From: Protoeuglena noctilucae | Lineage: Eukaryota | Length of the DNA: 64,000 nucleotides | Reading direction: 5' to 3' | NCBI GenBank assembly: GCA_958009085.1 | Contig: OY253685.1 | Coordinates: 372,001-436,000 of the forward strand | In this document: in pieces, positions 1-13,823 of the stretch | Layout of the letters: every line of letters starts with the position of its first letter | How positions within the stretch are numbered: the stretch's first letter is position 1 | Position numbers and translations under genes: made by a program | The notes under the pieces: model-generated | Told to the model about the DNA's origin: nothing | Databases searched by the model: none | What the model saw: the letters and a program-made list of their open reading frames with translations, nothing else

Positions 1-416
1 GACTGCCGCCGGCACTGGTCACGCGTGCGGGTGGCAGCGGCCCTGGTGGGCGGCGCTGGCGGGGTGTGGACGACCGCCCGCATCTCCCCGGGCCTTGTCA
101 TAGGTCCTCAAGGCGTGGGTGACCGCGTCCTCATGGCGGCACTGCTCTCCTGGCGCACCACAGGGCACCAGCGTGTCTGATGCGCCCGGGAAGTTTGAGG
201 CTCAAGAAATGGCGATTCTCTCACCCCCCCCCCCCCTCCCCCAAGGCGACGCCCGTCTTTGTCTCCCCCCCCCCCAAGACTCAAGGCGTAATGGTTCAGC
301 CCGAACACGTCTGACACCGGCAGGGTCAGAGCGTGGGTCAACCGCGGCACGAGGGTGCGCACACCCTTCGTGAACACTGAGCACGGCTTCAGGGTCATCA
401 TAACCAGCCAAGAGCG

Positions 417-717
417 CCGGGCACAGGGGGGCGAAACCCCCCACTGGCCCCTTGGGAACCACACTCCCAGAGTGCGTGGGGGCTTTGCAAAGCGTCCCGG
501 GGGCGGCAGCGTCGTAAGGCCACCTGAACGCGTGCGGTGAAGGCAGCGGCAGCCCCAAGGGACTGGGGGGACCGGATCTCGGGGACCTGGGTCCCCCGCT
601 CTGTCCCACAAGGGGGCGCCAAAGCCGTACCAGCACTCCGAACATGACGTGAAACCCTCGGCCACCGCCCCCGACTCTGCTAGGCCCCCGCCCACCGGCG
701 CCCGCCCGAGGTTTCCT
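417..717. repeat. ~300-bp dispersed repeat, copy 1 (copy 2 at ~1209-1508)
   Basis: Long shared blocks, e.g. GCCGGGCACAGGGGGGCGAA, AGGCCACCTGAACGCGTGCG, CCCAAGGGACTGGGGGGACCGGATCTCGGGGACCTGGGTCCCC and CACTCCGAACATGACGTGAAACCCTCGG. Contains several short hairpins. Confidence 0.9.
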
Positions 718-931
718 TGCGGGCACCCCGTGACGAGCACCGACGGGCAGCCGGCTGTCCCGCGGGGCCGAACCCGGGCTTTAGAACCCTGGAGGGCCGG
801 CGACCTTGAACTCCTGCACGTCCAGGCGATACCGCAATGTGAAGTACTCACCACGTCCCGCGCATGCGCGAGCAGGCTACCCACACCATCACAGGAGTGC
901 CATCTAGCAGACCCGGTGCTCCCACGCCCCG

Positions 932-1178
932 AAAAAAAAAAAAAAAAGGCTCGCGGCGGGATCGGAGCTCGACACGTCAGCACCTGGTGCCAGACGCGGG
1001 TGCCTCTCACTTCTCTGGACACCAACCGTGACCCGTGAGGGACCACGACCATTGCTCCCAAAAAAAAAAAAAAAAAAGGCCCGCGGCGGGATCGGAGCTC
1101 GACACGTCAGCACCTGGTGCCAGACGCGGGTGCCTCTCACTTCTCTGGACACCAACCGTGACCCGTGAGGGACCACGA
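932..1178. repeat. Two tandem ~100-bp near-identical units, each preceded by a poly(A) tract
   Basis: A-runs at ~932-947 and ~1060-1077, each followed by GGC(T/C)CGCGGCGGGATCGGAGCTCGACACG...CCGTGAGGGACCACGA. Confidence 0.9.
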
Positions 1179-1208
1179 TCTCGAGCTCGTCATTTCCCGC
1201 CGCGGGTG

Positions 1209-1508
1209 CCGGGCACAGGGGGGCGAACCCCCCCACTGGCCCCTAGGGATCCACACTCAGAGAGTGCGAGGGAGCTTTGCAAAGCGGCCCGGGGGCGGAA
1301 GCGTCATCAGGCCACCTGAACGCGTGCGCTAGGGGAGTGGCGCGCCCAAGGGACTGGGGGGACCGGATCTCGGGGACCTGGGTCCCCCGTTCTGTCCCAC
1401 GAGGGGGGCACCGCAGCCTTTGCAACACTCCGAACATGACGTGAAACCCTCGGCTACTGCTCCCGACTCTACTAGGCTCCCGCCCGCCGGCGCCCGCCCG
1501 AGGTTTCC
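1209..1508. repeat. ~300-bp dispersed repeat, copy 2
   Basis: Aligns by eye with 417-717, with scattered substitutions, many of them C/T. Confidence 0.9.
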
Positions 1509-1674
1509 ACGACCATTGCTCCCACGCCCCGTCTTTGTCTTTGATGGTCGTGAAGCTCTGGTACGAAAGCAGCGAGCGCCGGGCATGCCAGGACGGAGAG
1601 TTGCTGTCAGAGTACCTGATGCCAATCCTTTTGCTAAATTGTTGCAGCATTTCGACTTCCGTTGTCGAAGACGT

Positions 1675-1748
1675 TCCGGCTTAGCTCAGTTGGTTAGAGC
1701 GCACGGCTGTTAACCGTGAGGTCGCAAGTTCGACCCTTGCAGTCGGAG
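1675..1748 (+). tRNA. tRNA-Asn (GTT)
   Basis: Full cloverleaf: acceptor TCCGGCT/AGTCGGA, D-arm GCTC-AGTTGGTTA-GAGC, anticodon arm CACGG-CTGTTAA-CCGTG, T-arm GCAAG-TTCGACC-CTTGC, discriminator G. A TTTT Pol III terminator follows at ~1755. Confidence 0.95.
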
Positions 1749-1882
1749 CAAATCTTTTGGTGTGCCCAAGGATTACCCTACCGGGTATTGACCTACCCGC
1801 CTTCGGAGAGAAAGTCACCTACACTGCGCATGTGTAGGTACCTGTGTAGGTCAGCGCGAGCGCGAGGTCGCAAAACCCGTGC

Positions 1883-2060
1883 CGTGCCAAATGCACTGCA
1901 ACGATGGAAACCCCGGGGTGTCAGCTGCCCCGGGGGACGGCACTTCTGCCGCAAGGCGTGGCTCTGAGAGTCATAGCACCCCTCGACTGTTGAATCGCTC
2001 ATCATCATCGCAAAACCCCTGTCATAGCACCCCTCGACTGTTGAATCGCTCATCATCATC
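1883..2060 (+). repeat. Two 5'-truncated copies of the retrotransposon 3' end
   Basis: 1883-2009 matches 11279-11405 (127 bp, one mismatch seen). 2021-2060 repeats the last 40 bp. Both end in CATCATCATC. Confidence 0.8.
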
Positions 2061-2126
2061 AAAATTGGCGAGGGGGTGCGGTTGGGTGTTTTGCGTGCAT
2101 TCGCGACGGCTGATGCGGTCGCATAT

Positions 2127-2683
2127 CCCCTGGCAGGCGCCAGGCGGCAGCACGACGCGCTCGAGTTCTGCTGGTCGGGACAAGCCGCGCCCCCGAGTCT
2201 AGGGGGGCTTTCGGGGCGCTGCGCGCTGTGTGCGTGCAGAGGGACGGCAGGCTTTCGTGTCGGGGACGCAGAGCGACCGGCGGGACGCGGGGACCGCGCC
2301 GGTGGGACCAGGGTGGGGTCCGTTGTTAGCATGGGGCGAAAGTGCTCTGCGCCGTGGCATGGGGGCTTGTCTCTGCTTCGTTGCTTCGTTGTTGTATTTG
2401 TACCCAGGGGCCCGCTCGCGTGGCATCCTGCGGTTGCTCGTCCCGGCAGGGGCGGCGGTTCGGCGAAGGGGCTAGGGGCGCTGGAGCCCGGGGCGGCGGC
2501 CCCATAGCCTTAGGGTGGGGGGACCTAGCGGGGGCGGGCCAAGTGCCATATGCACTGCGATCATGGAACCCCCGGGGTGCGGCAGCCCCGGGGGAAGGCG
2601 CCCCTGTCGCGCGGGCCTAGCTCGTGCGGCGAGGATCCTGATGGACCTCAGCACCCTCAGCCATTGAACTGCACATCATCATC
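2127..2683 (+). mobile_element. Putative non-autonomous mini-element (diverged 5' end plus 3' end of the LINE, no ORF)
   Basis: 2127-2230 resembles 2689-2790 (CCCCTGGCAGGCGCCAGG...CGGGAC(A/G)AGCCGCGCCCC). 2468-2683 resembles 11203-11405 (GGGCTAGGGG...GCCTTAGGGTGGGG...CCTAGCGGGGGCGGGCCA...CATCATCATC). Confidence 0.6.
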
Positions 2684-2806
2684 GCAAAACCCCTGGCAGG
2701 CGCCAGGTGAAGGCACAGCCGCTCGGTCTCGTTGGCTCGGGACGAGCCGCGCCCCGGAGCCGAGGGGGGCTTGCGAGGCGCCGCGCGCGTGGCAGCGTGC
2801 GGTAAA

Positions 2807-5800
2807 ATGACGATCTGTAGCATGGATGGGCCGGGCGGCCGGCGGAAGGGGGTTGCGGCGACGGGGGCGGCCCGATCAGATGGTATTGTTAGCTCGAGCG
2901 TTCGGGGCCCGCGCGGTGGCGGGGCGGGGCCGGCGTCGGGTCTTTTGCATGCAGGGGGTTCAGAAGGTATCGCAGGAGGGTCTACGGGGGGCGGAGGAGG
3001 CGGAGCGGGCGCGGGTGCGCGGCGCGGGGGCGCGCTGGGGCAGCATGGCGGCGCGAGGAGAAGGGGGGGCGGGAGCGGTCCGCGAGGCCGGGGGAGCGGG
3101 AAGAGTCGGTCTGGAGGCGTTCAAAGCTCGGGAGCGCAAGGGTCGGAGGTCGGAGAGGCGTCGGGGGCGCGTATCGGCGCGCTCCCACCCATCCCGCTGC
3201 CGCCATTGGGGAATCTGCCCCCGCCGCCGCCGCCGCCGCCGCGGATGGCGCCCTCCGCGGTGCCGGCGCGCGGGCCACGGCGACGGGGAAGGCGGAGCGC
3301 GGCGCGGGACCTCGCGCCGGACGACCTGCGGGTCGTCAGCGTCAACGTGCGGGGGCTGTCGAGCGGGGCCATGGCGGGCAAGCGGGCGACGGTGCGGCGG
3401 CTGGTGCGGAGGCTGCGGGCGGACGTGGTGGTTCTACAGGAGGTCAAGATGCGGGCGGGGCAGGAGGCGGTGGCGTCGGGATTCTTCCCCCAATACTTCT
3501 GCCACTGGTCGCTGGACGAGAACGGCGGCCCGGGGGGCGTGGGGGTGCTGGTACATCGGGAGTCGGTGGCGGGCACGCCGAAGCGGCGCGGGGCGGACGT
3601 GGAAGGGCTGGCGGGGCGGGCGTGCGCAGTCGACCTCGCATGGGCCGACCGGCGCTTCACGGTGGTGGGGGTCTACGCGCCGGCGTCTGGGGGGGCGGCA
3701 GCGCACAGGGACTTCACTGCGCGGCTGCGGCATCTGATGCCGCCTCGCCAGGCGCACAGGGAGACGATCGTCGTTGGGGACTTCAACTGCACGTCGGGTC
3801 ACCCGCTCGAGCGGGCGTCCCGGCGCCACCACGACGACCTGGCCAAGGTCATCCACTGGACGGAGAACGTGACGGGACCGCAGGGGCTGGCGGACGTGCA
3901 CGTGCAGCTGGGGCTACGCCGGGACACCTACACGTGGTTCGGGGCGCGAGCGGAGGGGGCAGCAACGCCGGCGGCGCGCATCGACCGCTGCCTGGCGCGC
4001 CCGGCCCTGCTAGCCCGGCACCCGGCGACGCTGGCGGCGCGCTTCGTGCCCGGGCTGGACCACAAGGCGCTCGTCCTGACGCTGCGGCGGCGGGCAGACA
4101 GGGCCGCGGGGCGCAACCCGCTGCGGCAGGTCCGGCCGTTCTGGGCGCCGGGGAGCCATGAGGCCGAGCGATTCCAGCGGGGCGTGTGGAGGGACTTACC
4201 GGCGGACGGGCCGGGGTGCACGTCGGTGCGAGTGGCCTAGGTCATCCGGCACCGCGCGGAGGCGATCAACCTGGTGGTGCGGCGGCGGCGGGACGGGGAG
4301 CGGAGGCGTCTGGAGAAGCAACTGGGACGGGCGGAGAGGAGGGCGCAGCGGACGAACGCGACGGAGGACTGGGACCGGATGCTAGACCTGCAGCGCCAGC
4401 TGACGGTGCTGGAGCAGCAGGAGGTCCAGTGGCAGAGCGAGCGGGCGAAGCACTTTCTGCGGGTCTTCGGGGCCGTGCCGAGTCGGCGGATCACGGCCCA
4501 TTTCAAGTGGCGGCGGCGGGCCGAGGGCGTCACGGACGACCTCGCGCGGGACCTGCAGACCAACATGGCCCAGCTCTACGCCCCTGCCGCGCCCCCGGCC
4601 TCCGCGGACGGCCAACATGAGCGGGCGCGCGCCAACTTCCTGCGCAACCCGCGGTCGCCGCTGTCGGAGGAGGCGAGGGCCGCTCTCGAGGCAGACGTGA
4701 CACGGGCGGAGGCGGCTGAGGCGATACAGGGTCTACGGGGCGACAGCTGCGGTGGCGCGGACGGCATCTCCCCGGCGCTGCTCAGGGCGTGCCAGGGCAC
4801 CGGGACCGAGGCGGGCGTCGAGCGGGTGGTCGCCTACTTCGTAAACAAGCTCCTCCGCGGCGAGGGGCACGACGGCCGCCTCGCGGACGCCGCCATCACG
4901 CTCATCCACAAGGGCGGCTCGCGGACGGACTGGCGGCGGTACCGCCCCATCTCCCTACTGTCCGTCCTCTACAAGGCTTCGGCCAAGGTGCTGACGGCGC
5001 GGCTGCTGCGGGTGCTGCCGCAGCTCGTGCACGAGGACCAGTTGGGTTTCGTCCCCGGGCGTGACATTGGGACGGCCATCTACTCGCTGCATCTGCTCGA
5101 CGAGCTCATGCGCATCCGGCGGCAGTCTGCGTGGGCGGTGCTGGTGGACTTCGAACAGGCGTACGACACGGCCTTCCGGGGGTGGGCTGCGGACGCGATG
5201 GCGTGGGGAGGGCTCCCGCCGCGTTTTGTCAAGGCGGCGGTGGCGCTGCAGAGCGACAGCCGGGCGAGCCTGGTCCTCAATGGGGCGGCGGGGGAGCCGT
5301 TCCCGCTCAACCGGGGCGTCAAGCAGGGATGCCCCCTGAGCTCATCTTCGTGCTGGCGGTGGAGCCCCTCGCAGAGAGGCTGCGGGCGTGGGGCCAGGAG
5401 CCGGTGCAGCTGCCGGGCGGCCCGCGGTGCGACCGCGTGCTCGGCATCCGGACGACGGGCGGCAGGGCCGAGACGCTTCTGGCCTTCGCCGACGACTTCA
5501 ACGTGCTGCTCCAACGGCTCGTGGCGCGCGACAGGAACCAACTCGACCCGTGGCGGGAGCTGGCCGAGGTGCTGCGGGACTTCCACCGTGTGTCCGGGCT
5601 GAAGGCGAGCCAGACCAAGACGAAGCTCTACCGACTGGGACGCATCAACAAGCGGCAGGAGGCCAAGGCCGCCGCGCAGGGCTGCCCGTGGGGGGTGGAG
5701 CTGGGGGGCGTGCGGCTGCTGGGGGCGCAGACGAGAGAGCAGGCGGCGCTGGTGTGGCCCGGGCGGCTGGGGGAGGCCCTGCGCCGCGCGGACGCGGCGT

Positions 5801-8376
5801 CATCGCTGGGGCTGCCGATCCGGGGTCGGGCGCGCGTCGCCAACGCCTACATCACCTCGCTCGCGGGGTACCACCTCGAGATGTCCCCCGCCGCCGACCA
5901 CTCGTGCGTCGCTGACCTGCGGAGGGTCCAGGAGCGCTATGTCCTCAACGCACGATCGGCGGGGCAGGTGTGGTTCCGTGTGGGCCGCATCATGCTGACC
6001 GCCCCGCCGGAGGGTGGGGGGCTGGGCGCCCTCCCGCTGGACGCGCACACGGCGGCGCGGCGGCTCCGGCACCTGGCGCGCGCCCTCATCACGAAGCGCG
6101 TGGGCGCTCACGGCCAGTTGGACGGTCTCGCTGGCATCCTCACGGCGTGCCTGGAGGGGCTCGGGGCAGGCCGGCTGGGCCTGCTGCCCTTCTCACTGCC
6201 CGAGACGGACGGTTGCCACGTGGCGCAGTTGATCGAGTCCCGCCGCCTGCGGGGCAAGCTGCCGGCGCTCGAGAGCTTCTGCGACGCCATCAAGAGCCTC
6301 GGGACCCTGCGCGCGACCCTCGGGCCCGTGCACGCGCCGCCACCTCTGGCACCCACGACGGACGAGGTCGCCCGGCAGCGCTGGACCGGCCTGGCGGCGG
6401 AGGGCCGGCTGACGCTCAACTTCGACGGGGGCTCGCGGGGCAACGGCTCCGACACGTCCACGGCTGGCGCGGGGGCGGTGCTGGCGGCCGGGGAAGGCGA
6501 GGGGGTGGAGACGCTGGAGCTCGCGGGCCCCGCCGTGCGCGGGGCCTCCAACAACCAGGCCGAGTTCGCCGCGCTTTTGGGAGGGCTGCGCGCGGCAGTC
6601 GAGCTCGGCGCCACCAAGCTCCGCGTCCGGGGGGACTCCCTCCTCGTCATCCGCGCCATGGACCCGCGGGACTGCTCGGTGCTGCGGCACCCGGCGCTGG
6701 TGCCGCTGTGGACCGAGGCGCAGAGGCTCGCGGCGGGCCTCGACATCACTTGGGAGCACGTGCCACGGGAGCAGAACGCCCTGGCGGACCGCCTGTCCAA
6801 CGTGGCCATGGACGGGCATGGCTGGCGGGGGGCGCGCATGGGCGGCGGGGGCCTGGCGGGCACGGACGGCTCGCGTTTCGCCTCTTCTACGGACTTCTTC
6901 ACCCCCGTCACTGGGACTACAAAGGGGGATCTACTCTGCGCGTCGCTTCTCACCCCGGGGGTCCTCTGTGCCGCCGGCGGGGGGGCTCCGGGCGCGGGGG
7001 TGGCAGGCCTGGGGGCGCCGGCGATGGAGGGGGCAGCTGGCCCCCTCCACAACGACATGGGACAGGACCAAGACGATTCGGCCTCATCGCTCCACAGCTT
7101 CGCGACGGGCGCCCATGGGAGGGCTGGTGGGGCGTGGGTGCACGACGGCGCGTCGGGCGACGACAATACGGATGATGGGATCGACGAGGGGGGTGCTGGG
7201 CGGCCGGCGGGGGGCGGCCGGCCCCTCCTCCTGCACCCGGTGGGGAGGGCGATGGCGTAGCGGGGGTTCGGAACTGTGGGGCATTATCTCTGCATGCGGG
7301 ACCCGGCGCGGCGATGGGACACGTGGGTCTCCTGGGCGTTCGCGCTGGGCTATGATCGGCTGCCGGGGATGGATCGGAGGGGCCTCGGCTGGGTGGTTGG
7401 GGCTTTTATGCGGGACCTGGGCCTCCTTGGGCCGGGCATACTCGTTGCCCGGCCAGACGTGGAGGGGCAATGGGACCCGTGGGACGGGCTGGCGCTCACG
7501 GAAGGCTTCATGGAGCGCCTGCGACTCGCCTCCCCGGGCGGCGGGGAGGCCAACGACTTCTACCGGCCCATGACGGCCACCGCGCCGGGCTGGGCACTGG
7601 ACCCCGGCGTCGCCTCCAAGGCGGCGCTGGACCTGGCCTCCTACACGGTGCGGGAGGCGGCGAGGACGACGTGTGACAGGGCGGCGATCCGGCAGCGGCT
7701 GGAGCGCAAGGCGGAGGGCTGGGCGGCGGCGCTGGGGGAGGGACACGGCTTAACGGGAGAGGGATTGAGGCGCACGCTGGTGGCGCTCAACGGGCTGCCG
7801 CTGTCGGACGCCCTGCACGAGCGGCTGTGGCTGACGCTGGCGGACGGGTGGGCTACGCAGGACAGGATGTACTGGGCGGAGCGGGACGAGTGCCCGCTGC
7901 TGACGGAGGAGGGGGAGGCGTGCATGGGAAAGGACAGCGCGGCCCACGCGTTCTGGGAGTGCTCGCGCGCGCGGGAGGTGTGGCGCGTGGCGAGGGGCAT
8001 CGTGGCGTGGGCGGGGGGGGCGCAGGGGGCGCCCCTCCGCCTGTCGGCCCTCTTCCTGTTGCGCGTGCCGGAGGGCGCGCGGTTGGGGCCGCTCACGTGG
8101 GCGGTCGTGGCGGGGGCGACCGTGCAGGTCATCTGGCGCAGGCGGCAGCAGCTGACGAAGGACGCGGGGGCGGACGCGTACCCGGCACAGCTGTTCGCGC
8201 AGATGGCGCGCATCATGGCCGAGGAGCTCGTCGCTCTGGCGGCGTACCGGGGCGGGCGGGCCCTCGCGCGCTGCACGCACCCTGACGACGCCCTCTTACA
8301 CCCAAGGGACCCGGCGAGGTCCACCTTCACCTACACTGCGCCCACATGGGCAGCCGTCGAGCCGCTACTCCCCTGA
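2807..8376 (+). pseudogene. Disrupted LINE polyprotein: Gly/Arg-rich N-terminus, APE endonuclease, reverse transcriptase, archaeal-type RNase H, zf-RVT
   Basis: APE motifs VSVNVRGL, VVLQEVK, GVYAP, VVGDFN, IDRCL, LDHKAL. RT motifs YRPISLL, QLGFVPGR, LVDFEQAYD, GVKQGCPLS, AFADD. RNH motifs FDGGSRGN, NNQAEF, RGDS, EQNALADRLSN. zf-RVT CPLL...C...DSAAHAFWEC. In-frame TAG at 4238-4240 and 7258-7260, frameshift at ~5340, no introns seen. Confidence 0.9.
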
Positions 8377-8420
8377 GGGGGGCTCTTCATTCGCAGCTCG
8401 CCATCACCCCACGACATTCG

Positions 8421-8485
8421 GGCCGGGGCGCCGGCGCCGGACGGGTGGCCTTCGGGCTGCTCGTTCCGGCGTCGGCGCCCCGGCC
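8421..8485 (+). other. ~30-bp RNA hairpin capped by a C(UUCG)G tetraloop in the LINE 3' UTR
   Basis: GGCCGGGGCGCCGGCGCCGGA-CGGGTGGCC-TTCG-GGCTGCTCG-TTCCGGCGTCGGCGCCCCGGCC. The non-Watson-Crick positions are mostly G-U on the + strand. Confidence 0.85.
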
Positions 8486-10512
8486 AACTGGGGCGTCCAC
8501 GGCCACACTGAGCATCTACGGAAGAGCCCGTCTGCCGGCTAAAACAAGCTCCCCTGCACCCAGGATGATGATATGGGCTGGAGCATCGCACGGCGGCGCC
8601 ACCGGCGATCCCCTGGGCTGCCTGGCCGGAGCCGGAGCCTGAGAGGGGCCGCGGGCGGGGGGTCCACGCGATGCGCGCGCAGCCGCAGGGGCGTGGGGCG
8701 CGCTGTGGCGGCAAGGGCGGGCGCCTCACGGGGAGGGTGCCGGCGCTCGGGACACCAAGGGCTTCTGCGCACCCACGCTCCATCTCTCGCATGCCTCGCA
8801 GGTTCTCGGACGCACACTCGACAGCTTTACCCACACGCCTTCTCCTCACCTGCCCCGCAGCCGGCCATGCCACCCCACCCCAATGCGCATTACTCCCACA
8901 TCCACCCGACCGCATTGCTCCCACCAGGGCCCTAAGCCAGCCCACTGCCTTCCTATGACGCACACTTTTCACCCCCCACATCACACTGCACACGCACCCT
9001 GCCCCAGCAGCACTCACCCGCATGCCACGCCTCCCCGTCCATGCCCGCAGCTAACAGATAGATGCCTCTTCCAACCAGACCACACACACCGTCTTACTCT
9101 CTGCACGCACCCTCGTCACTCATCTCACGATCTCGCCGCTCAGCACCACTCTTGCCCACTCACCGCGCATCACCACTGACATACACACGTTCACCTCTCA
9201 ACCCCCTCTCCTCTTCCACATGGACCCCCACATAAACCACCTTCCTGCTCAGCACGCATCATCTCCCACCCCTCCTCCTGGCAGCCCCACGCCACACCCT
9301 TCTCACGGACCACGCCCCCGCACACACCTCACCTCACACGCCCAACCAGACTCGCCCTTTTCGCAAGCCCTCCTGCCCCACGCACTCCCCCCCTAGCTGC
9401 ACAGGTAAGGCTCAGCACCCTCTCCTCACAGCTAATGCCCACGTGAGCACTCACACCCCTCAGCGCATCACTCCCCACGCACCAAGCACCACACACCGAT
9501 CCAGCACAGCATCTGCACCTCCTGACCTCCCCCAATCACGCACAGACCTCCTCGCATCCTCCCACGACCACCCTCTTGGCCAGCCGCAGGTCAGGACCCA
9601 CACCAACACTCATCCTCCGCCACGCACACCGTCACCTCTCCCTGACCGCAGACCTGGACGGACGCGCAGACGCACCCTTGCCTCACCCCTAGCCCTTTGC
9701 AGCCATGCCTCGCAGGCCCTTGGTGTCCCACAGCCGCCAGCGCTCACCCGTGGGGCGTCTGCTCCGTCGCCGTCGCGGCGCGCCCCGCACACCCACGGTA
9801 CTGCGCGTGCCGCGTGGCCTCCCCGCCCGTGGTCCTTCAGGGGCTCTGGCGCTGGTCGGGTGGGTCCGCGTGGGGGTCGCCAGCGCGTCGCATGTGCTCC
9901 AGCCAACGTGAGAGACCAGCCCCGCTGGGGGGGGCTGGCAAAGGGTGCGACGGGGGACAAACGTCGGGGCAGAGCTGGCACCAACGGGTTGATGGGCTCA
10001 GACAGTGGCGAGAGACGTGGCGCCCGTGGGGTGGAACGCCGGGGATGTCGTGGGAACACCCGGCAGTGGCGCAGAACGGACCAGGCGCCACAGGATCAGA
10101 GAGCGGCGTGGCTGCGACGAGGCGGGGAGAGTGGGGGCGCAAGTGGGCCGGAGGGCCTGTCTTTGGGAGTCTGCTGAGGAGGCCCTGCAGGAGAGCAACG
10201 GATGGCGAGGGGTGCTGGCGCCCGGCATGATGGCGCTGGCGGGGGCGACCCCTCGCACGACACACAGCAGGGCAGCGGGCTTTTGGGGGCGGGCGCGATG
10301 GCAGCGCGGCAAGAGCGAGCGGCGGCGGCGAGAGTAACACAAGGGGCATCGAATGGTGTGGGTGGGCATGGGCTGGGCGACACAGGGGTGTCGGGTGTTT
10401 GGGGGGGCGACGGGGGCGCGAGGCAGGCCGAGGTCCTCTGGATGCGCAGGGGCGCGTGAGCGGGGGGCAGGCCTCGGTTATCAGGGCGCGCGGGTGCGCG
10501 GAGCGGGGGGTG

Positions 10513-10680
10513 GGCCAAGGTCGTCAGCGTTAAAGGGCCAGGGTCGCCACAGCGTCGGTTGAAGGTCGTCAGCGCATTTGGCCAAGGTCGTCAGCGTGAA
10601 AGGCCAAGGTCGTCAGCGTGATGGGCCAAGGTCGTCAGCGTGATGGGCCAAGGTCGTCAGCGTGACAGGCCAAGGTCATC
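10513..10680 (+). repeat. Minisatellite of ~8 units of ~21-22 bp, GGCCAAGGTCGTCAGCGTGA(T)
   Basis: Directly visible tandem units, degenerate at the edges. Confidence 0.9.
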
Positions 10681-11547
10681 TGGGCGTGTGGGGGCGAGGA
10701 GTTGAGGGACGGGCCAAGGCCGACGGGCGCGGGAGAGGACGGGCCAAGGGCCAAGATCGACGTGCGGGAGCGAGGAGCGGGGCCGCGTCGTGGGTCTCTG
10801 GGCACACGGCCGAGTGGGTCGTGCCGGCGCACGCACCCGGAGCGGGGCGGTCTGGGGCGGTCCACATGAGAGGCAGCCGGCCCTCAGGGGCGCAGCGTGG
10901 GCGAGCGGGGCGCCCAGGGGCAACGCTGCGCCCCCCAAGGAACGCCGTCTGCGTTCGGACCGTCCCCACCGCCCTCGCGTTCGGGCCAGCGTCGCCGGGT
11001 GGGCGAGCCAGCCGGGCCGCCTGAGGAGGATGGGAGGAGGGTAGGGAGCGGGGGATGTCATGATTGGCCGCCCATAAGCTACACAGATCGTCATTAGCCT
11101 CGGCCTCACCTTTTGTAATAGACGCCCGGGGGTCTCCAAGGAGGGCCCCCGCGGCTGCATCGTCCCACTCTGGGACGGCGATTCTGCCTTAGGGCGCAGC
11201 GAGGGGGCTAGGGGTGCAAGAACCCGGGGTGGGCGACCCCTTTGCCTTAGGGTGGGGCAACCTAGCGGGGGCGGGCCACGTGCCAAATGCACTGCAACGA
11301 TGGAAACCCCGGGGTGTCAGCTGCCCCGGGGGACGGCACTTCTGCCGCAAGGCGTGGCTCTGAGAGTCATAGCACCCCTCGACTATTGAATCGCTCATCA
11401 TCATCACGACCTTCACCTTCACCTTCACGCCGAAGCGCGATTCACGTTCCGGTTGTAGCTTGGTGAGACGGGATACGGTCGGGGCTGCCTCGCCTGGGCC
11501 GAGCGTTCCTGGGACCTGCACCAGCACCCTGGGGTTCTGCTGCAGTC

Positions 11548-13823
11548 ATGTGGGGGCCCCAGTTACTTTTGGTGGAGGACCTGGAGCTTGGGGCGCCGCT
11601 GGGTGGGAGCGAGGGGGTCGTGACGGCTCAATGGGTCTCGAGGGGGCTGGACGTGGCGGTGAAGTTGCTAGAGCTGCTGGATGGCGCTAGCACGGGCACG
11701 AATCCGGCTCTGGAGTTGCGCCTGGCTTTCCATGGCTCATGGTCGCGCCGGTCGATGCCAATGCTCCGTCCCAGCGGGCGCCCACTGCCGGGTCCTGGTC
11801 GTCGCCGTCAGCGGTCGCTGCGTGCTGGTGGGGACGCCGCGTTTCGCTCGCGGGTCCCTCGCGCGGCGCCTGGGGAGCGGGACGGCCCTTCCTGCGAAGG
11901 AGGCCGTGGACGTGGCCGTGCAGCTGCTGGAGGGGCTGTGCGCCCTGCATGAGCGGGGCATCGTGCACGCCGCGCTCAAGCCCAGCAACGTGCTGGTGGA
12001 CGAGAAGGGACGACTGCGACTGTCTGACTACGGGCTCGCAGATGCTGCTGGCGTCCAGATGGGCCCCTCGGCAGGGAAGCTGTCACCTTCCTAAGGTGGG
12101 AAAGGGCAGCTACAGGGACGTTTCTTTCGTCAACACAGCGTGCTACGGAACCTTCCATGTCCGCAGTGGGAGGGTGGACAGGGTGCGCTGGTCGATGCCG
12201 CGGCCTACGTGGCCCCGAAATGCAGGGGCGAAGGGGCGGCCACGAGCTTTGCCTCGGACGCATACGCGGTGGCCGCCGTGCTGTGCCACGTGGCGTCGGG
12301 CACGGCGCTGCCCACGGATGGGCACGCCTGCGCAGGTGCCGAAGACGTTGCCGGAGCCGCTTCGGTCGGCCCTGCGAGGGGCGCTGTGCGCGGAGGCGGA
12401 GCGCAGGACAGCTGTGGCGGACATGCTGGAGGCAGCGAGAGAAGCCAGGTGCGCGTCGGAGTAAATCGACGTTGCAACGGTTGCGCGCGTGGGTGCAAGC
12501 CACGCAAGTCCGACCGCCCTCGGCGTCATCGCAGGGCGGCGCTGTGGACGTGCTGCATCTGCATGGAGGAGGAGGAGGCGCTGACGCCATGCTTGGCGGA
12601 CACGCACCGCATCTGCAGCGAGTGCCTGGCCAGCTTGGTCGGGACCCTAACGGCGAGCCACTCGGTCTTCACGGTGGATGGTCACGTGGGGTGCAAGGAG
12701 GCGACGGGGCGGGAGTGCCGGGGCGTGTTCCGACGCGCGGATGTGGTGGAGGGACTTGTGCAGTCGCGGGCCTCGGCAGCGTGCCTGGCCTTTCTGGAGC
12801 AGGGGTCACACGGAGGTGCTGTCGCAAGTATCAGCAGACGCACGCATGACCGAGCTTCAGCGCCGGAGTGCGGGAGCTCGAGAGTTGACTGAGGAAGCAA
12901 AAGCGCTCGGCGATATGGAAGAATCCGTGACCACCCATTGGCGGGCGATGAAGGACCTCCTAATCGTGGTCCGGTGCCCCAGCTGTCAGCGCCCAGGGTC
13001 GATCGACGTATCGCGCTGCATGGCGCTGCACTGCGCGCGGGGGGACGGCGGCTGCGGCTGCCATTTCTGCGCGTGGTGCATGGGGGCCTGCTCCGACTCG
13101 GGCGCGGCCCACGACCACGTGAGCGAGTGCCGGCTGAACCCCAACCGGCCGGCTTTCTTTGCATCAGAGGAAGACCTGCTTAAAAGCCGGAAGTGGGAGC
13201 AGCGTCTGCGTGTGGTGGCTTTCCTCCGGGACAGCATTGCCCCTAGACACCGAAAGGCCGCGTGGGCGCTGGGGTTTGCAAAGCTGCCGGCCATCTGTGA
13301 CTTGGGGCTACGCTGGGAGGACGTGTGTTGCGGGTGTTGCGGCGTCATGAGCCGCGGGAAGGGCAGCAAGGTGACCGTGAGGCGTGTGTCCATCACGGGC
13401 TCCAAGGCGAACGCGGGATCGCGTGCTGGGACAGTGGGGTGGGTGAGGTGTCGGACGTGCACATTACGCGGTGCAAGCTGTCGGGCATCTCCGTCATTGG
13501 GGCTGGGAGCAGCGTTAAGGTGCAGGGGGGCACAATTGAGGGCCCCATGGAGCACCACGGCGTGTGCTGCTTCAGGGGTGGGTTTGCAGACCTGAAGGAC
13601 GTTGATCGCAGACTGCGGCAAGGCGGGCGTCCAGAGTTTTGGCAATGGTAGCAAGGTGGTCGTGCGAGGGGTAAGCTTGGCGCGGATGGGTAGCAAGGGT
13701 GGTTTGTGCTGCGAGAACGGTGGTGAAGCGGAGGTGGAGGGCACGCTTGTCAGCGATCGCGGTGGCAGCAGCGGACGGGGTGGCAGCGAGCAGCGTCGCA
13801 AAGCCTCGTGCAGTTTCATGTGA
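11548..13823 (+). pseudogene. Frameshifted kinase-like + RING + IBR-like + right-handed beta-helix fusion
   Basis: Kinase motifs DVAVKLL, IVHAALKPSNVLVD, LSDYGLA, YVAP, SDAYA. RING CCIC...HRICSEC...C...C. IBR-like CPSC...CMALHC...CGCHFCAWC...H..C. Beta-helix repeats (VSDVHITRCKLSGISV, IADCGKAGVQSF). The motifs are spread over several frames. Confidence 0.7.

Follow-up and report, generated by a model that had tools for sequence, protein, structure and literature searches.

A candidate 5'-3' RNA junction at the start codon of an L1-like retrotransposon of Protoeuglena noctilucae and its counterpart in a short non-autonomous relative

To our knowledge, the passage of LINE RNA from translation to template and the copying of its full-length 5' ends are open questions. 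Pairing of RNA ends is known from RNA viruses and, among LTR elements, from Ty1; our literature search found no report of it in a non-LTR element. In Ty1, short complementary sequences near the RNA ends, CYC5 and CYC3, are needed for replication, according to PMC7969010, while PMC6765113 describes flavivirus genome circularisation as yielding a closed form that inhibits translation initiation and favours copying. Here, we present an analysis of a helix, P3, predicted to join the 5' and 3' regions of an L1-like element, F1, and of its counterpart in a short relative, S1. Both lie in a 64,000-nucleotide stretch of P. noctilucae DNA (the window), where F1 has the following parts:

2684 to 11406, + strand: F1, an L1-like non-LTR retrotransposon (APE-RT-RNase H), from sister copies, Pfam and PDB
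2807 to 8376, + strand: single ORF, broken in this copy
3338 to 4027, + strand: apurinic-type endonuclease domain PF03372 (Pfam E 1.1e-16)
4931 to 5640, + strand: reverse transcriptase PF00078, split by the frameshift, its end approximate and taken from copy C17
6442 to 6804, + strand: RNase H domain PF13456 (Pfam and PDB)
7891 to 7962, + strand: C-terminal CCHC motif, read from the sequence
11396 to 11406, + strand: (ATC)n tail, the element end

The first 95 nt of the family 5' end are missing from this copy, and its ORF is interrupted by stops at 4238-4240 and 7258-7260 and by a frameshift near 5340. Four more near-full-length sister copies (C17, C19, C6 and C15) were found at 96.6-98%. Copies of F1 have a common 3' end with a simple-repeat (ATC)n tail, vary in 5' truncation and carry no LTRs. 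The endonuclease stands N-terminal to the non-LTR reverse transcriptase (PF03372, PF00078), as in the L1/Tx1 group, and the best PDB match of the protein is LINE-1 ORF2p (E 4e-28, residues 278-976), R2 being matched at E 3.5e-9. The nearest solved relatives of the RNase H are Rv2228c and archaeal-type RNase HI (PDB search). The CCHC motif gave a weak BLASTP match (E 0.001) to the C-terminus of the zf-RVT-bearing P0003, and Pfam zf-RVT was not matched. No separate ORF1 was recognised in F1, whose single ORF of 1856 aa starts with 172 aa of low complexity; ORF1 is absent from some L1s too, as stated in PMC5203782.

Homologues of the F1 protein comprised one 99% cluster, all others having less than 40% identity, with no intermediate relative in that search. 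A metagenome scan with a two-sequence RT alignment returned 80 loci, distant only (at most 35% identity over long segments), and following up two motifs at loose contig ends turned up short, old pieces of 3' sequence and an unrelated site, with no third family. No third relative of F1 and S1 was found in the species' own genome, in metagenomes or among proteins.

The original prediction held that positions 2806-2821, which contain the in-frame start codon, are complementary to 11078-11095. Around them, folding models, run on segments or contexts around the arms (15 copy/context runs), predict a compact three-way junction with long-range pairs of about 16, 6 and 5 bp:

2766 to 2770, + strand: P0 5' arm, weaker outer helix, with one G-C to G-U change in S1
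2774 to 2779, + strand: P1 5' arm CGAGGC (cofold), retained in S1 with two G-U changes
2781 to 2802, + strand: P2, a local hairpin immediately 5' of the AUG (probability 0.96-1.0)
2806 to 2821, + strand: P3 5' arm AATGACGATCTGTAGC, containing the AUG at 2807-2809 (pairing check)
11078 to 11095, + strand: P3 3' arm GCTACACAGATCGTCATT (pairing check)
11097 to 11102, + strand: P1 3' arm GCCTCG (cofold)
11103 to 11107, + strand: P0 3' arm, pairing with 2766-2770

The core of the prediction was recovered. P3 has 13 contiguous Watson-Crick pairs (2806-2818 with 11083-11095) and three more past a 2-nt bulge, at -20.5 kcal/mol, and the frame opened by the ATG at 2807 inside its 5' arm runs for 1856 codons in C17 and C6. 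In the first 172 codons, changes are mostly non-synonymous (9 vs 4-5), and use of this AUG is putative. The arms lie about 8.3 kb apart in F1 RNA and are not terminal as had been supposed: 217 nt separate the 5' arm from the family 5' end, and 311 nt follow the 3' arm; F1 has no extended complementarity at its very termini of the kind that makes a terminal inverted repeat or a viral panhandle. The cofold probability of P1 was 0.82-0.99 in 14 of the 15 runs, and that of P0 ranged with context from 0.02 to 0.98. Pairing energy is -22.6 on the sense strand, -3.5 on the antisense strand and -7.4 for DNA. An antisense ORF of 145 codons, starting MTICV, also runs from the 3' arm; it has no Pfam match, is frameshifted in C6 and was taken as a by-product.

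The 5' arm sequence is the same in all six distinct 5' copies, and the 13-mer of the 3' arm is confined to the F1 family (29 genome matches, against 0 for a control pattern). In C17, whose ORF is intact, a G to T change in the 3' arm breaks one of the pairs, and the probability falls to 0.13 in the widest context. Arm changes were absent from the 40 of 45 differences listed between public-run contigs and the natural 3'-end/5'-end tandem L057:6130-7465; four runs were used, one of which gave nothing, the 5' arm was covered by X6 only, and the comparison is uninformative. At the candidate ATGs of two other families, F2 and F3, no comparable pairing was seen, the longest helix there having 7 bp.

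The wider panhandle was not supported. Of 24 distinct 3' sites, only that of this copy has the adjoining match GGCCGCCC, all the rest reading GGCCGCAC, and three of the six distinct 5' copies have GGGAGGCC. The further short matches claimed between 2855-2930 and 10940-11000 lie at the shuffle mean (2855-2930 x 10930-11000, 249/500), as does the duplex of 2684-3000 with 10800-11406 (15/40), and extended inverted homology between the F1 ends was rejected, local alignment being no better than shuffles (149/300).

How unusual P3 is by size depends on the comparison. It is the top composition-weighted long-range inverted match of F1 (30.2 bits), a level reached by none of 75 block shuffles, whereas among 14 natural host stretches of 6.4-8.7 kb one has a 31.0-bit match and three have at least 29 bits; F2 holds a 29.6-bit inverted match inside its ORF. 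Since equal or near matches occur in natural stretches, the size of the match is not decisive alone, and by size it is only mildly unusual. The segment pair 2760-2830 x 11070-11115 reaches -47.6, against -32.3 +/- 3.9 in shuffles, none of 500 being as low. Within F1, each arm pairs best with the opposite end, which ranks first among 842 and among 1704 windows, with small margins (-36.1 vs -34.4; -23.0 vs -20.4), and 7 of 24 internal segments do as well as or better than the true pairing in net ensemble gain (-14.6). A second inverted match of 17 bp (4019-4035/10985-11001) was set aside as private to this copy, because none of the four sister copies has it among its five best matches.

More weight falls on S1, which precedes F1 in the window:

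1675 to 1749, + strand: tRNA-Asn(GTT) gene, about 130 nt downstream of which the nested F1/S1 cluster begins
1883 to 2060, + strand: two short pieces of the F1 3' end carrying ATC tails, which entered the nest earlier
2061 to 2683, + strand: this copy of the non-autonomous S1, without its first ~165 nt (787 nt when complete)
2212 to 2239, + strand: S1 P1 5' arm (2212-2217, partner 2375-2380) and hairpin P2 (2219-2239)
2241 to 2259, + strand: S1 P3 5' arm, with an unbroken run of 14 pairs (2246-2259) as well as GGA and a bulged C
2358 to 2374, + strand: S1 P3 3' arm, homologous to the F1 3' arm

S1 is an F1-like 5' domain fused to an F1-like 3' domain. Its flanks agree with F1 at about 78% of aligned letters (92 of 118 in one, 227 of 290 in the other), and its first ~135 nt have no F1 counterpart. 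Like other SIDEs, it has both ends homologous to an autonomous element, lacks the middle and has copies of its own. Its 5' arm is present in 13 copies at the fetched loci, and among the ten copies in which both arms were detected nine keep 14 of 14 pairs and one keeps 13. ACG stands at the position of the F1 ATG. The 14-bp helix occupies positions homologous to those of F1 with changed letters, has six G-U pairs and folds with probability 0.85-1.0; P2 shows a C-G to U-A change.

The original prediction proposed a search for compensatory changes in other copies. Sister copies, being 96-100% alike, allow no covariation test of P3; such changes were found in S1, a different element, so that the comparison covers two lineages only. 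Among ten aligned pairs of P3, six are changed and kept, three of them on both sides, and none is broken. P3 ranks first among 108 possible F1 5'-3' stems of at least 7 bp, which together have 139 pairs kept and 183 broken; in a hand register over P0-P3, 11 of 29 pairs are changed and none broken. In windows defined by flanking anchors, not by structure, F1 gives 13 bp at -23.0 and S1 14 bp at -22.8, against 5 bp at -11.0 and 5 bp at -8.3 for the cross pairs. In nulls of 5000 each, a helix of at least 14 bp arose four times with shuffles, four times with natural S1 window pairs and never with ORF window pairs, and neutral mutation retained all ten pairs in 102-1687 of 200000 trials. The arms themselves are poorly conserved between F1 and S1, which agree at 7 of 16 aligned letters in one arm and at 7 of 11 in the other, the exact register was recovered in three of six aligner settings, and the S1 helix was noticed by eye before the tests were set. 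In this two-lineage comparison, F1 shares with functional cyclisation elements (Ty1 CYC, flavivirus) a pair of 5' and 3' segments whose complementarity is preserved through covariation, and on this ground the F1 5'-3' pairing is probably selected. What remains of the panhandle is this 5'-3' pairing as a probably selected structure, in the form of a compact junction rather than an extended one.

The best explanation as a whole (probability about 0.55) is, we consider, that selection maintains a three-way junction on the sense RNA with P3 as its central helix. That the helix is real only as a local fold of a compact S1-like RNA, its complementarity in F1 being a relic left after a coding cassette was inserted into the loop or after the need was lost, is rather unlikely. 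The S1 arms lie only ~100 nt apart in a strong fold, internal F1 segments compete equally (the 7 of 24 above), and the candidate HDV-like 5' module of S1 is absent from all F1 copies. However, neutral drift on the F1 side would be expected to break pairs, and the F1 helix has 13 bp, all Watson-Crick, though its arms differ from S1 at about half of the positions; ACG in place of ATG also fits descent of S1 from a coding element. Chance, by which a 13-mer in F1, AT-rich as it is, finds a match and S1 happens to have an unrelated local helix, rich in G-U pairs, at similar positions, we hold to be unlikely. The match was chosen out of a very large scan and equalled in one host stretch of 14, the wider regions lie at the shuffle mean, and both the six G-U pairs and the varying register leave room for it; against this, the F1 helix had been named before S1 was examined, retention in S1 has p ~0.001-0.008 in four nulls, and both junction spacings as well as helices P1 and P2 agree between the elements.

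It is improbable that P3 is chiefly a translation repressor, the 3' UTR blocking the AUG and S1 keeping the helix for RNA stability only. The position of the AUG within P3, directly behind P2, and its predicted opening cost would suit a repressor, yet compensatory changes occurred in S1, which lacks that AUG, so selection there acts without ORF translation. Still less probable is an intermolecular pairing, in dimers or head-to-tail arrays of F1 RNA instead of cyclisation; cis and trans look the same in sequence, and chimeric S1/F1 insertions show the reverse transcriptase moving between RNAs, but the S1 arms pair locally in cis and the F1 and S1 arms do not cross-pair. A DNA-level feature, either a shared TGACG-type factor site or an inverted terminal repeat, has the slightest probability. 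TGACG recurs, reversed, in the 22-nt tandem repeat at 10511-10677, and AAATGACGA lies near both ends of F2. In S1, however, letters have changed while pairing is kept via G-U, which is possible on the sense RNA alone; neither arm is terminal, and F1 has a TPRT-type tail. Judged by the S1 comparison, this reading is largely refuted.

If the selected junction is accepted, P3 would form in full-length F1 RNA, joining the 5' UTR and AUG to the 3' UTR with 8.3 kb looped out. Its conserved job may be to make a retrotransposition-competent template with both ends presented to the element protein, or else to hold the 5' end near the reverse transcriptase. In F1, the same helix could hide the AUG, the closed form being poorly translated and serving as template and the open form being translated. 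Folding models put the cost of opening the AUG at 1.8-2.0 kcal/mol alone and at 12.0 kcal/mol with the 3' part, and such occlusion is a plausible coupling. Because S1 keeps P3 without an AUG there, translation control is not the whole reason for conservation, and template or RNP architecture is the more likely conserved role. S1 itself was probably produced when the sequence looped out between the arms was lost. Whether F1 would cyclise its 8.8-kb RNA through the AUG-containing junction as a flavivirus-like switch from translation to TPRT, S1 being permanently closed, is a tentative analogy that we regard as doubtful. P3, at 16 bp and with a compensatory variant available in nature, lends itself to a direct mutate-and-rescue test, and the 787-nt S1, in which the two ends are joined, defines a minimal template.

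The S1 5' end was compared with HDV-like ribozyme models, scoring 18.4 bits for drz-agam-1 (gathering 37; E 0.17) and 15.7 bits for HDV. All helices of a P1-P4 double pseudoknot of that type can be drawn by eye, the core sought being CCUCCUCG(U/C)GG plus a catalytic C, and the HDV-like fold is a modelled candidate; ten S1 5' junctions start at the same G run. An Rfam scan of window positions 1-13000 returned tRNA only, Rfam at the F1 5' end gave nothing convincing, and a hammerhead ribozyme at the junction was rejected, its core being absent by eye.

The family may target tRNA genes. At loci chosen by the elements, with no background set, F1 or S1 starts 52-208 nt downstream on the same strand in 14 of 30 tRNA calls of normal length, and at most others the element lies upstream, pointing away. 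In Dictyostelium, TRE3 inserts ~100 bp downstream and TRE5 ~100 bp upstream of tRNA genes, as given in PMC5006619. F1 and S1 may resemble these non-LTR elements in placement, and differ in lying on either side of the tRNA with the 5' end towards it at 50-350 nt and in nesting in each other's ATC tails.

Among known systems, F1 shares with L1/Tx1 elements, including the RNase H-bearing plant L1s, APE and RT with an RVT_3-type RNase H after the RT, a putative C-terminal CCHC and frequent 5' truncation (PMC5203782). It departs from them in its single ORF without recognised ORF1, RNase H before the CCHC, 3-kb 3' UTR, (ATC)n tail instead of poly(A), and long-range 5'-3' helix over the AUG, of which we found no report in that group. 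Like Ty1 with CYC5/CYC3, it is a retrotransposon whose RNA has short stretches of complementarity close to either end, Ty1 being an LTR element and F1 a TPRT element. Cyclisation in Ty1 is tied to tRNA-primed reverse transcription and strand transfer, a step that a TPRT element lacks. Flaviviruses offer a similar long-range end pairing near the start codon, in an RNA virus with an RdRp and many covarying isolates, whereas F1 is a retrotransposon and its switch is putative. Comparable to S1 are the R2 SIDEs and the trypanosome elements RIME and NARTc; S1 likewise is short and internally deleted, keeps 5' and 3' domains with compensatory changes and has a fixed 5' end, there with a putative HDV-like fold. 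R2 is RLE-type and F1 APE-type; in the portion of PMC3414825 available, the conserved structures of SIDEs are local (the ribozyme and the 3' UTR), whereas the S1 helix joins the 5' and 3' domains.

F1 (2684-11406) encodes APE, RT and RNase H domains, with LINE-1 ORF2p as the best solved relative of its protein, and judged by its sequence it is an L1-like non-LTR element. Its reading frame is broken by two stops and one frameshift in the window copy and is a single open frame of 1856 codons, starting at the same ATG, in the sister copies C17 and C6; four other copies have a 5' end 95 nt further upstream than the window copy, and the 3' UTR, 3 kb long, terminates in (ATC)n. The original prediction, that the ends of F1 are complementary over the start codon (2806-2821 with 11078-11095), was confirmed at both positions. 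This helix, P3, comprises 13 contiguous Watson-Crick pairs (2806-2818 with 11083-11095), a 2-nt bulge and three more pairs (-20.5 kcal/mol), and is the top composition-weighted long-range inverted match of the element, its 30.2 bits being reached in none of 75 block shuffles. Natural DNA is the stricter control for this score: 14 host stretches of 6.4-8.7 kb gave best matches of 24-31 bits, one of them reaching the score of P3, and the second non-LTR family F2 holds a 29.6-bit inverted match within its own ORF, so the size of the match alone does not rule out chance. The core region 2760-2830 x 11070-11115 alone stands out from shuffles (0/500); the wider pairing was not borne out, since the further matches (2855-2930 x 10930-11000) and the whole ends (2684-3000 x 10800-11406) score at the shuffle mean (249/500 and 15/40, respectively), and the adjacent match GGCCGCCC is present in one of 24 distinct 3' sites.

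Cofolding of the F1 ends gave a three-way junction of the following helices, together with a weaker outer helix, P0:
2774-2779/11097-11102, long-range helix P1
2781-2802, hairpin P2
2806-2821/11078-11095, AUG helix P3

P1 and P3 reached probabilities of 0.82-0.99 in all but one of 15 copy/context runs, C17 in the widest context giving 0.12-0.13. In the models, opening of the AUG costs 1.8-2.0 kcal/mol when only the 5' region is present and 12.0 once the 3' part is included. Two figures count against the pairing: 7 of 24 internal segments match or surpass its net gain of -14.6, and the other end is the best partner of each arm by a margin of just 1.7-2.6 kcal/mol. On such models, a protein or a co-folding effect would be needed for P3 to dominate in F1. 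Candidate ATGs of F2 and of a third family, F3, showed at most 7 bp of such pairing.

All 29 genomic occurrences of the 3' arm's 13-mer lie within F1, and at 18 of the 24 distinct 3' sites the 18-mer and its flank are unchanged or altered upstream only; among the remaining sites, C17 has a G to T that breaks a pair and C6 a duplication of 4 nt by which the bulge becomes wider, one further copy carries two changes, and another is truncated. Being 96-100% alike, the sister copies cannot show selection.

S1, a non-autonomous element of 787 nt (window copy 2061-2683, directly upstream of F1), lacks the middle 8.1 kb of F1. Its flanks match those of F1 at 92 of 118 (5' part) and 227 of 290 (3' part) aligned letters, and its homologues of the P3 arms have diverged, sharing 7 of 16 and 7 of 11 aligned letters with F1. 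ACG stands in place of ATG and there is no ORF at that site; the helix is nonetheless kept, GGCAGGCTTTCGTG (2246-2259) pairing with CATGGGGGCTTGTC (2358-2371) in 14 contiguous pairs, six of them G-U, with a probability of 0.85-1.0 in the whole-S1 fold; the helix also appears in both the MFE and the centroid of 2200-2420. In 24-nt windows placed by flanking anchors, F1 x F1 gave 13 bp, S1 x S1 14 bp and each cross combination 5 bp. A helix of at least 14 within four registers arose in 4/5000 shuffles, 4/5000 natural S1 window pairs and 0/5000 ORF window pairs; when the observed 5+5 changes were placed at random, all ten pairs survived in 102 of 200000 trials at a transition share of 0.5, in 428 at 0.67 and in 1687 at 0.8. 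Compensatory changes, for which the original prediction was to be checked in other copies, are seen here in the relative S1: among 108 possible F1 5'-3' stems (at least 7 bp) mapped onto S1 by structure-blind alignment, under one of the three of six aligner settings that return the exact register, P3 ranked first, with ten aligned pairs, six changed and kept, three of these on both sides, and none broken. The other three settings gave a shifted register, in which 7-9 of 16 pairs map to canonical pairs. The 108 stems together show 139 changed pairs that still pair and 183 that no longer do; by arithmetic this gives about 0.43^6 = 0.006 for a pre-named stem. In the register set by hand, 11 of the 29 pairs that make up P0-P3 differ in S1, and no pair is broken. 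The energy of the S1 helix is -22.6 as sense RNA, -3.5 as antisense and -7.4 as DNA, which marks it as a structure of the sense RNA, as opposed to an inverted repeat of the DNA.

The covariation counts as real evidence, drawn from two lineages, and the function is putative. The helix is probably under selection. Since S1 keeps it with neither ATG nor ORF at that site, the selected step must be one common to S1 and F1, candidates being recognition by the F1 protein, TPRT, 5' end completion or RNA stability. PMC3414825 describes binding of the R2 protein to both RNA ends of its element, which makes juxtaposition of the ends plausible. We put at roughly 0.55 the whole reading, in which the three-way junction would form in full-length F1 RNA, be selected and hold the two RNA ends together in the RNP, its closing also damping translation because the AUG lies within the helix. 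A true switch between translation and TPRT, as originally proposed, appears rather unlikely.

The window corresponds to G000:C18:372001-436000 of a eukaryotic genome (26.3 Mb, 27 contigs, TTAGGG telomere repeats). Near-identical sequence is present in marine metagenomes and metatranscriptomes: 15 of 24 listed runs contain the stretch or part of it, four being RNA runs, all from one study. The RNase H of F1 (6442-6804) is of archaeal/Rv2228c type and placed between RT and a CCHC motif. Its 3' UTR holds an old inverted repeat of about 140 nt (8631-8769/9711-9850, 74%) around 940 nt of opposite strand skew, an arrangement kept in 4/4 sister copies, and a 22-nt tandem repeat (10511-10677) with CGTCA (TGACG reversed) in variable copy number. 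An antisense frame of 145 codons (10657-11094, minus) begins at the 3' arm (MTICV), is shifted in C6 and had no Pfam match. Just downstream of F1, 11691-12464 is kinase-like by eye (HAALKPSNVL ... DYG motifs); the one frame searched against Pfam gave no match. At the 5' ends in loci L052 and L053, C19 and C6 share an upstream flank of 110 nt or more, and C15 part of it, possibly by 5' transduction or duplication. At L057:7196-7695 an F1 5' end breaks off 50 nt past the ATG, where TTAGGG repeats take over, and an S1 copy in L012 ends likewise. F2 (379-1540, minus; L078:1271-7095), a sister family at 47-48% RT identity (F3, about 30%), gave no RNase H match; its sense strand ends in a poly(T) run, a TAG stands just ahead of the APE domain, and an in-frame ATG upstream is absent from all three copies seen. 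Beside an F2 copy in L081 (G000:C19:143001-153000), a stretch with long minus-strand ORFs has 48% GC, host DNA having 67%.

Of the 30 tRNA calls of normal length (12 of the 42 in total were left out for odd length or coordinates), 14, each a different gene, have an F1/S1 nest that starts 52-208 nt downstream on their own strand, at loci chosen by the presence of elements:
window 1675-1749; L002, L004, L009, L012, L014, L017, L020, L025, L032, L033, L057, L092, L176, nests downstream of tRNA genes

Most other tRNAs have an F1, S1 or F2 piece upstream, oriented away. This apparent placement resembles the targeting of Dictyostelium TRE3/TRE5.

By comparison with passages of PMC3414825, S1 belongs to the SIDE type of element; its 5' end is fixed and carries a candidate HDV-like fold. 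That fold, with a hairpin in J1/2, was seen at L094:2695-2800 and is absent from the window copy of S1 and from F1 copies, its Rfam matches lying below threshold; ten S1 5' junctions begin at the same G run. About 40 nt of S1 5' end are fused to F1 3' sequence at L057:5968-6115 and G000:C15:685272 (minus), which suggests template jumps between the two RNAs. The structures described for R2Tg in sections of PMC12222951 are local, a 5' ribozyme and the 3' UTR only, and we found no report of 5'-3' pairing over the start codon of a non-LTR element in searches of CC-licensed PMC papers and bioRxiv. End pairing itself is an already known device: by analogy with Ty1 CYC5/CYC3 and flavivirus cyclisation, as outlined in parts of PMC7969010 and PMC6765113, that of F1 would work alike, and in flaviviruses the latter source describes circularisation as damping translation.
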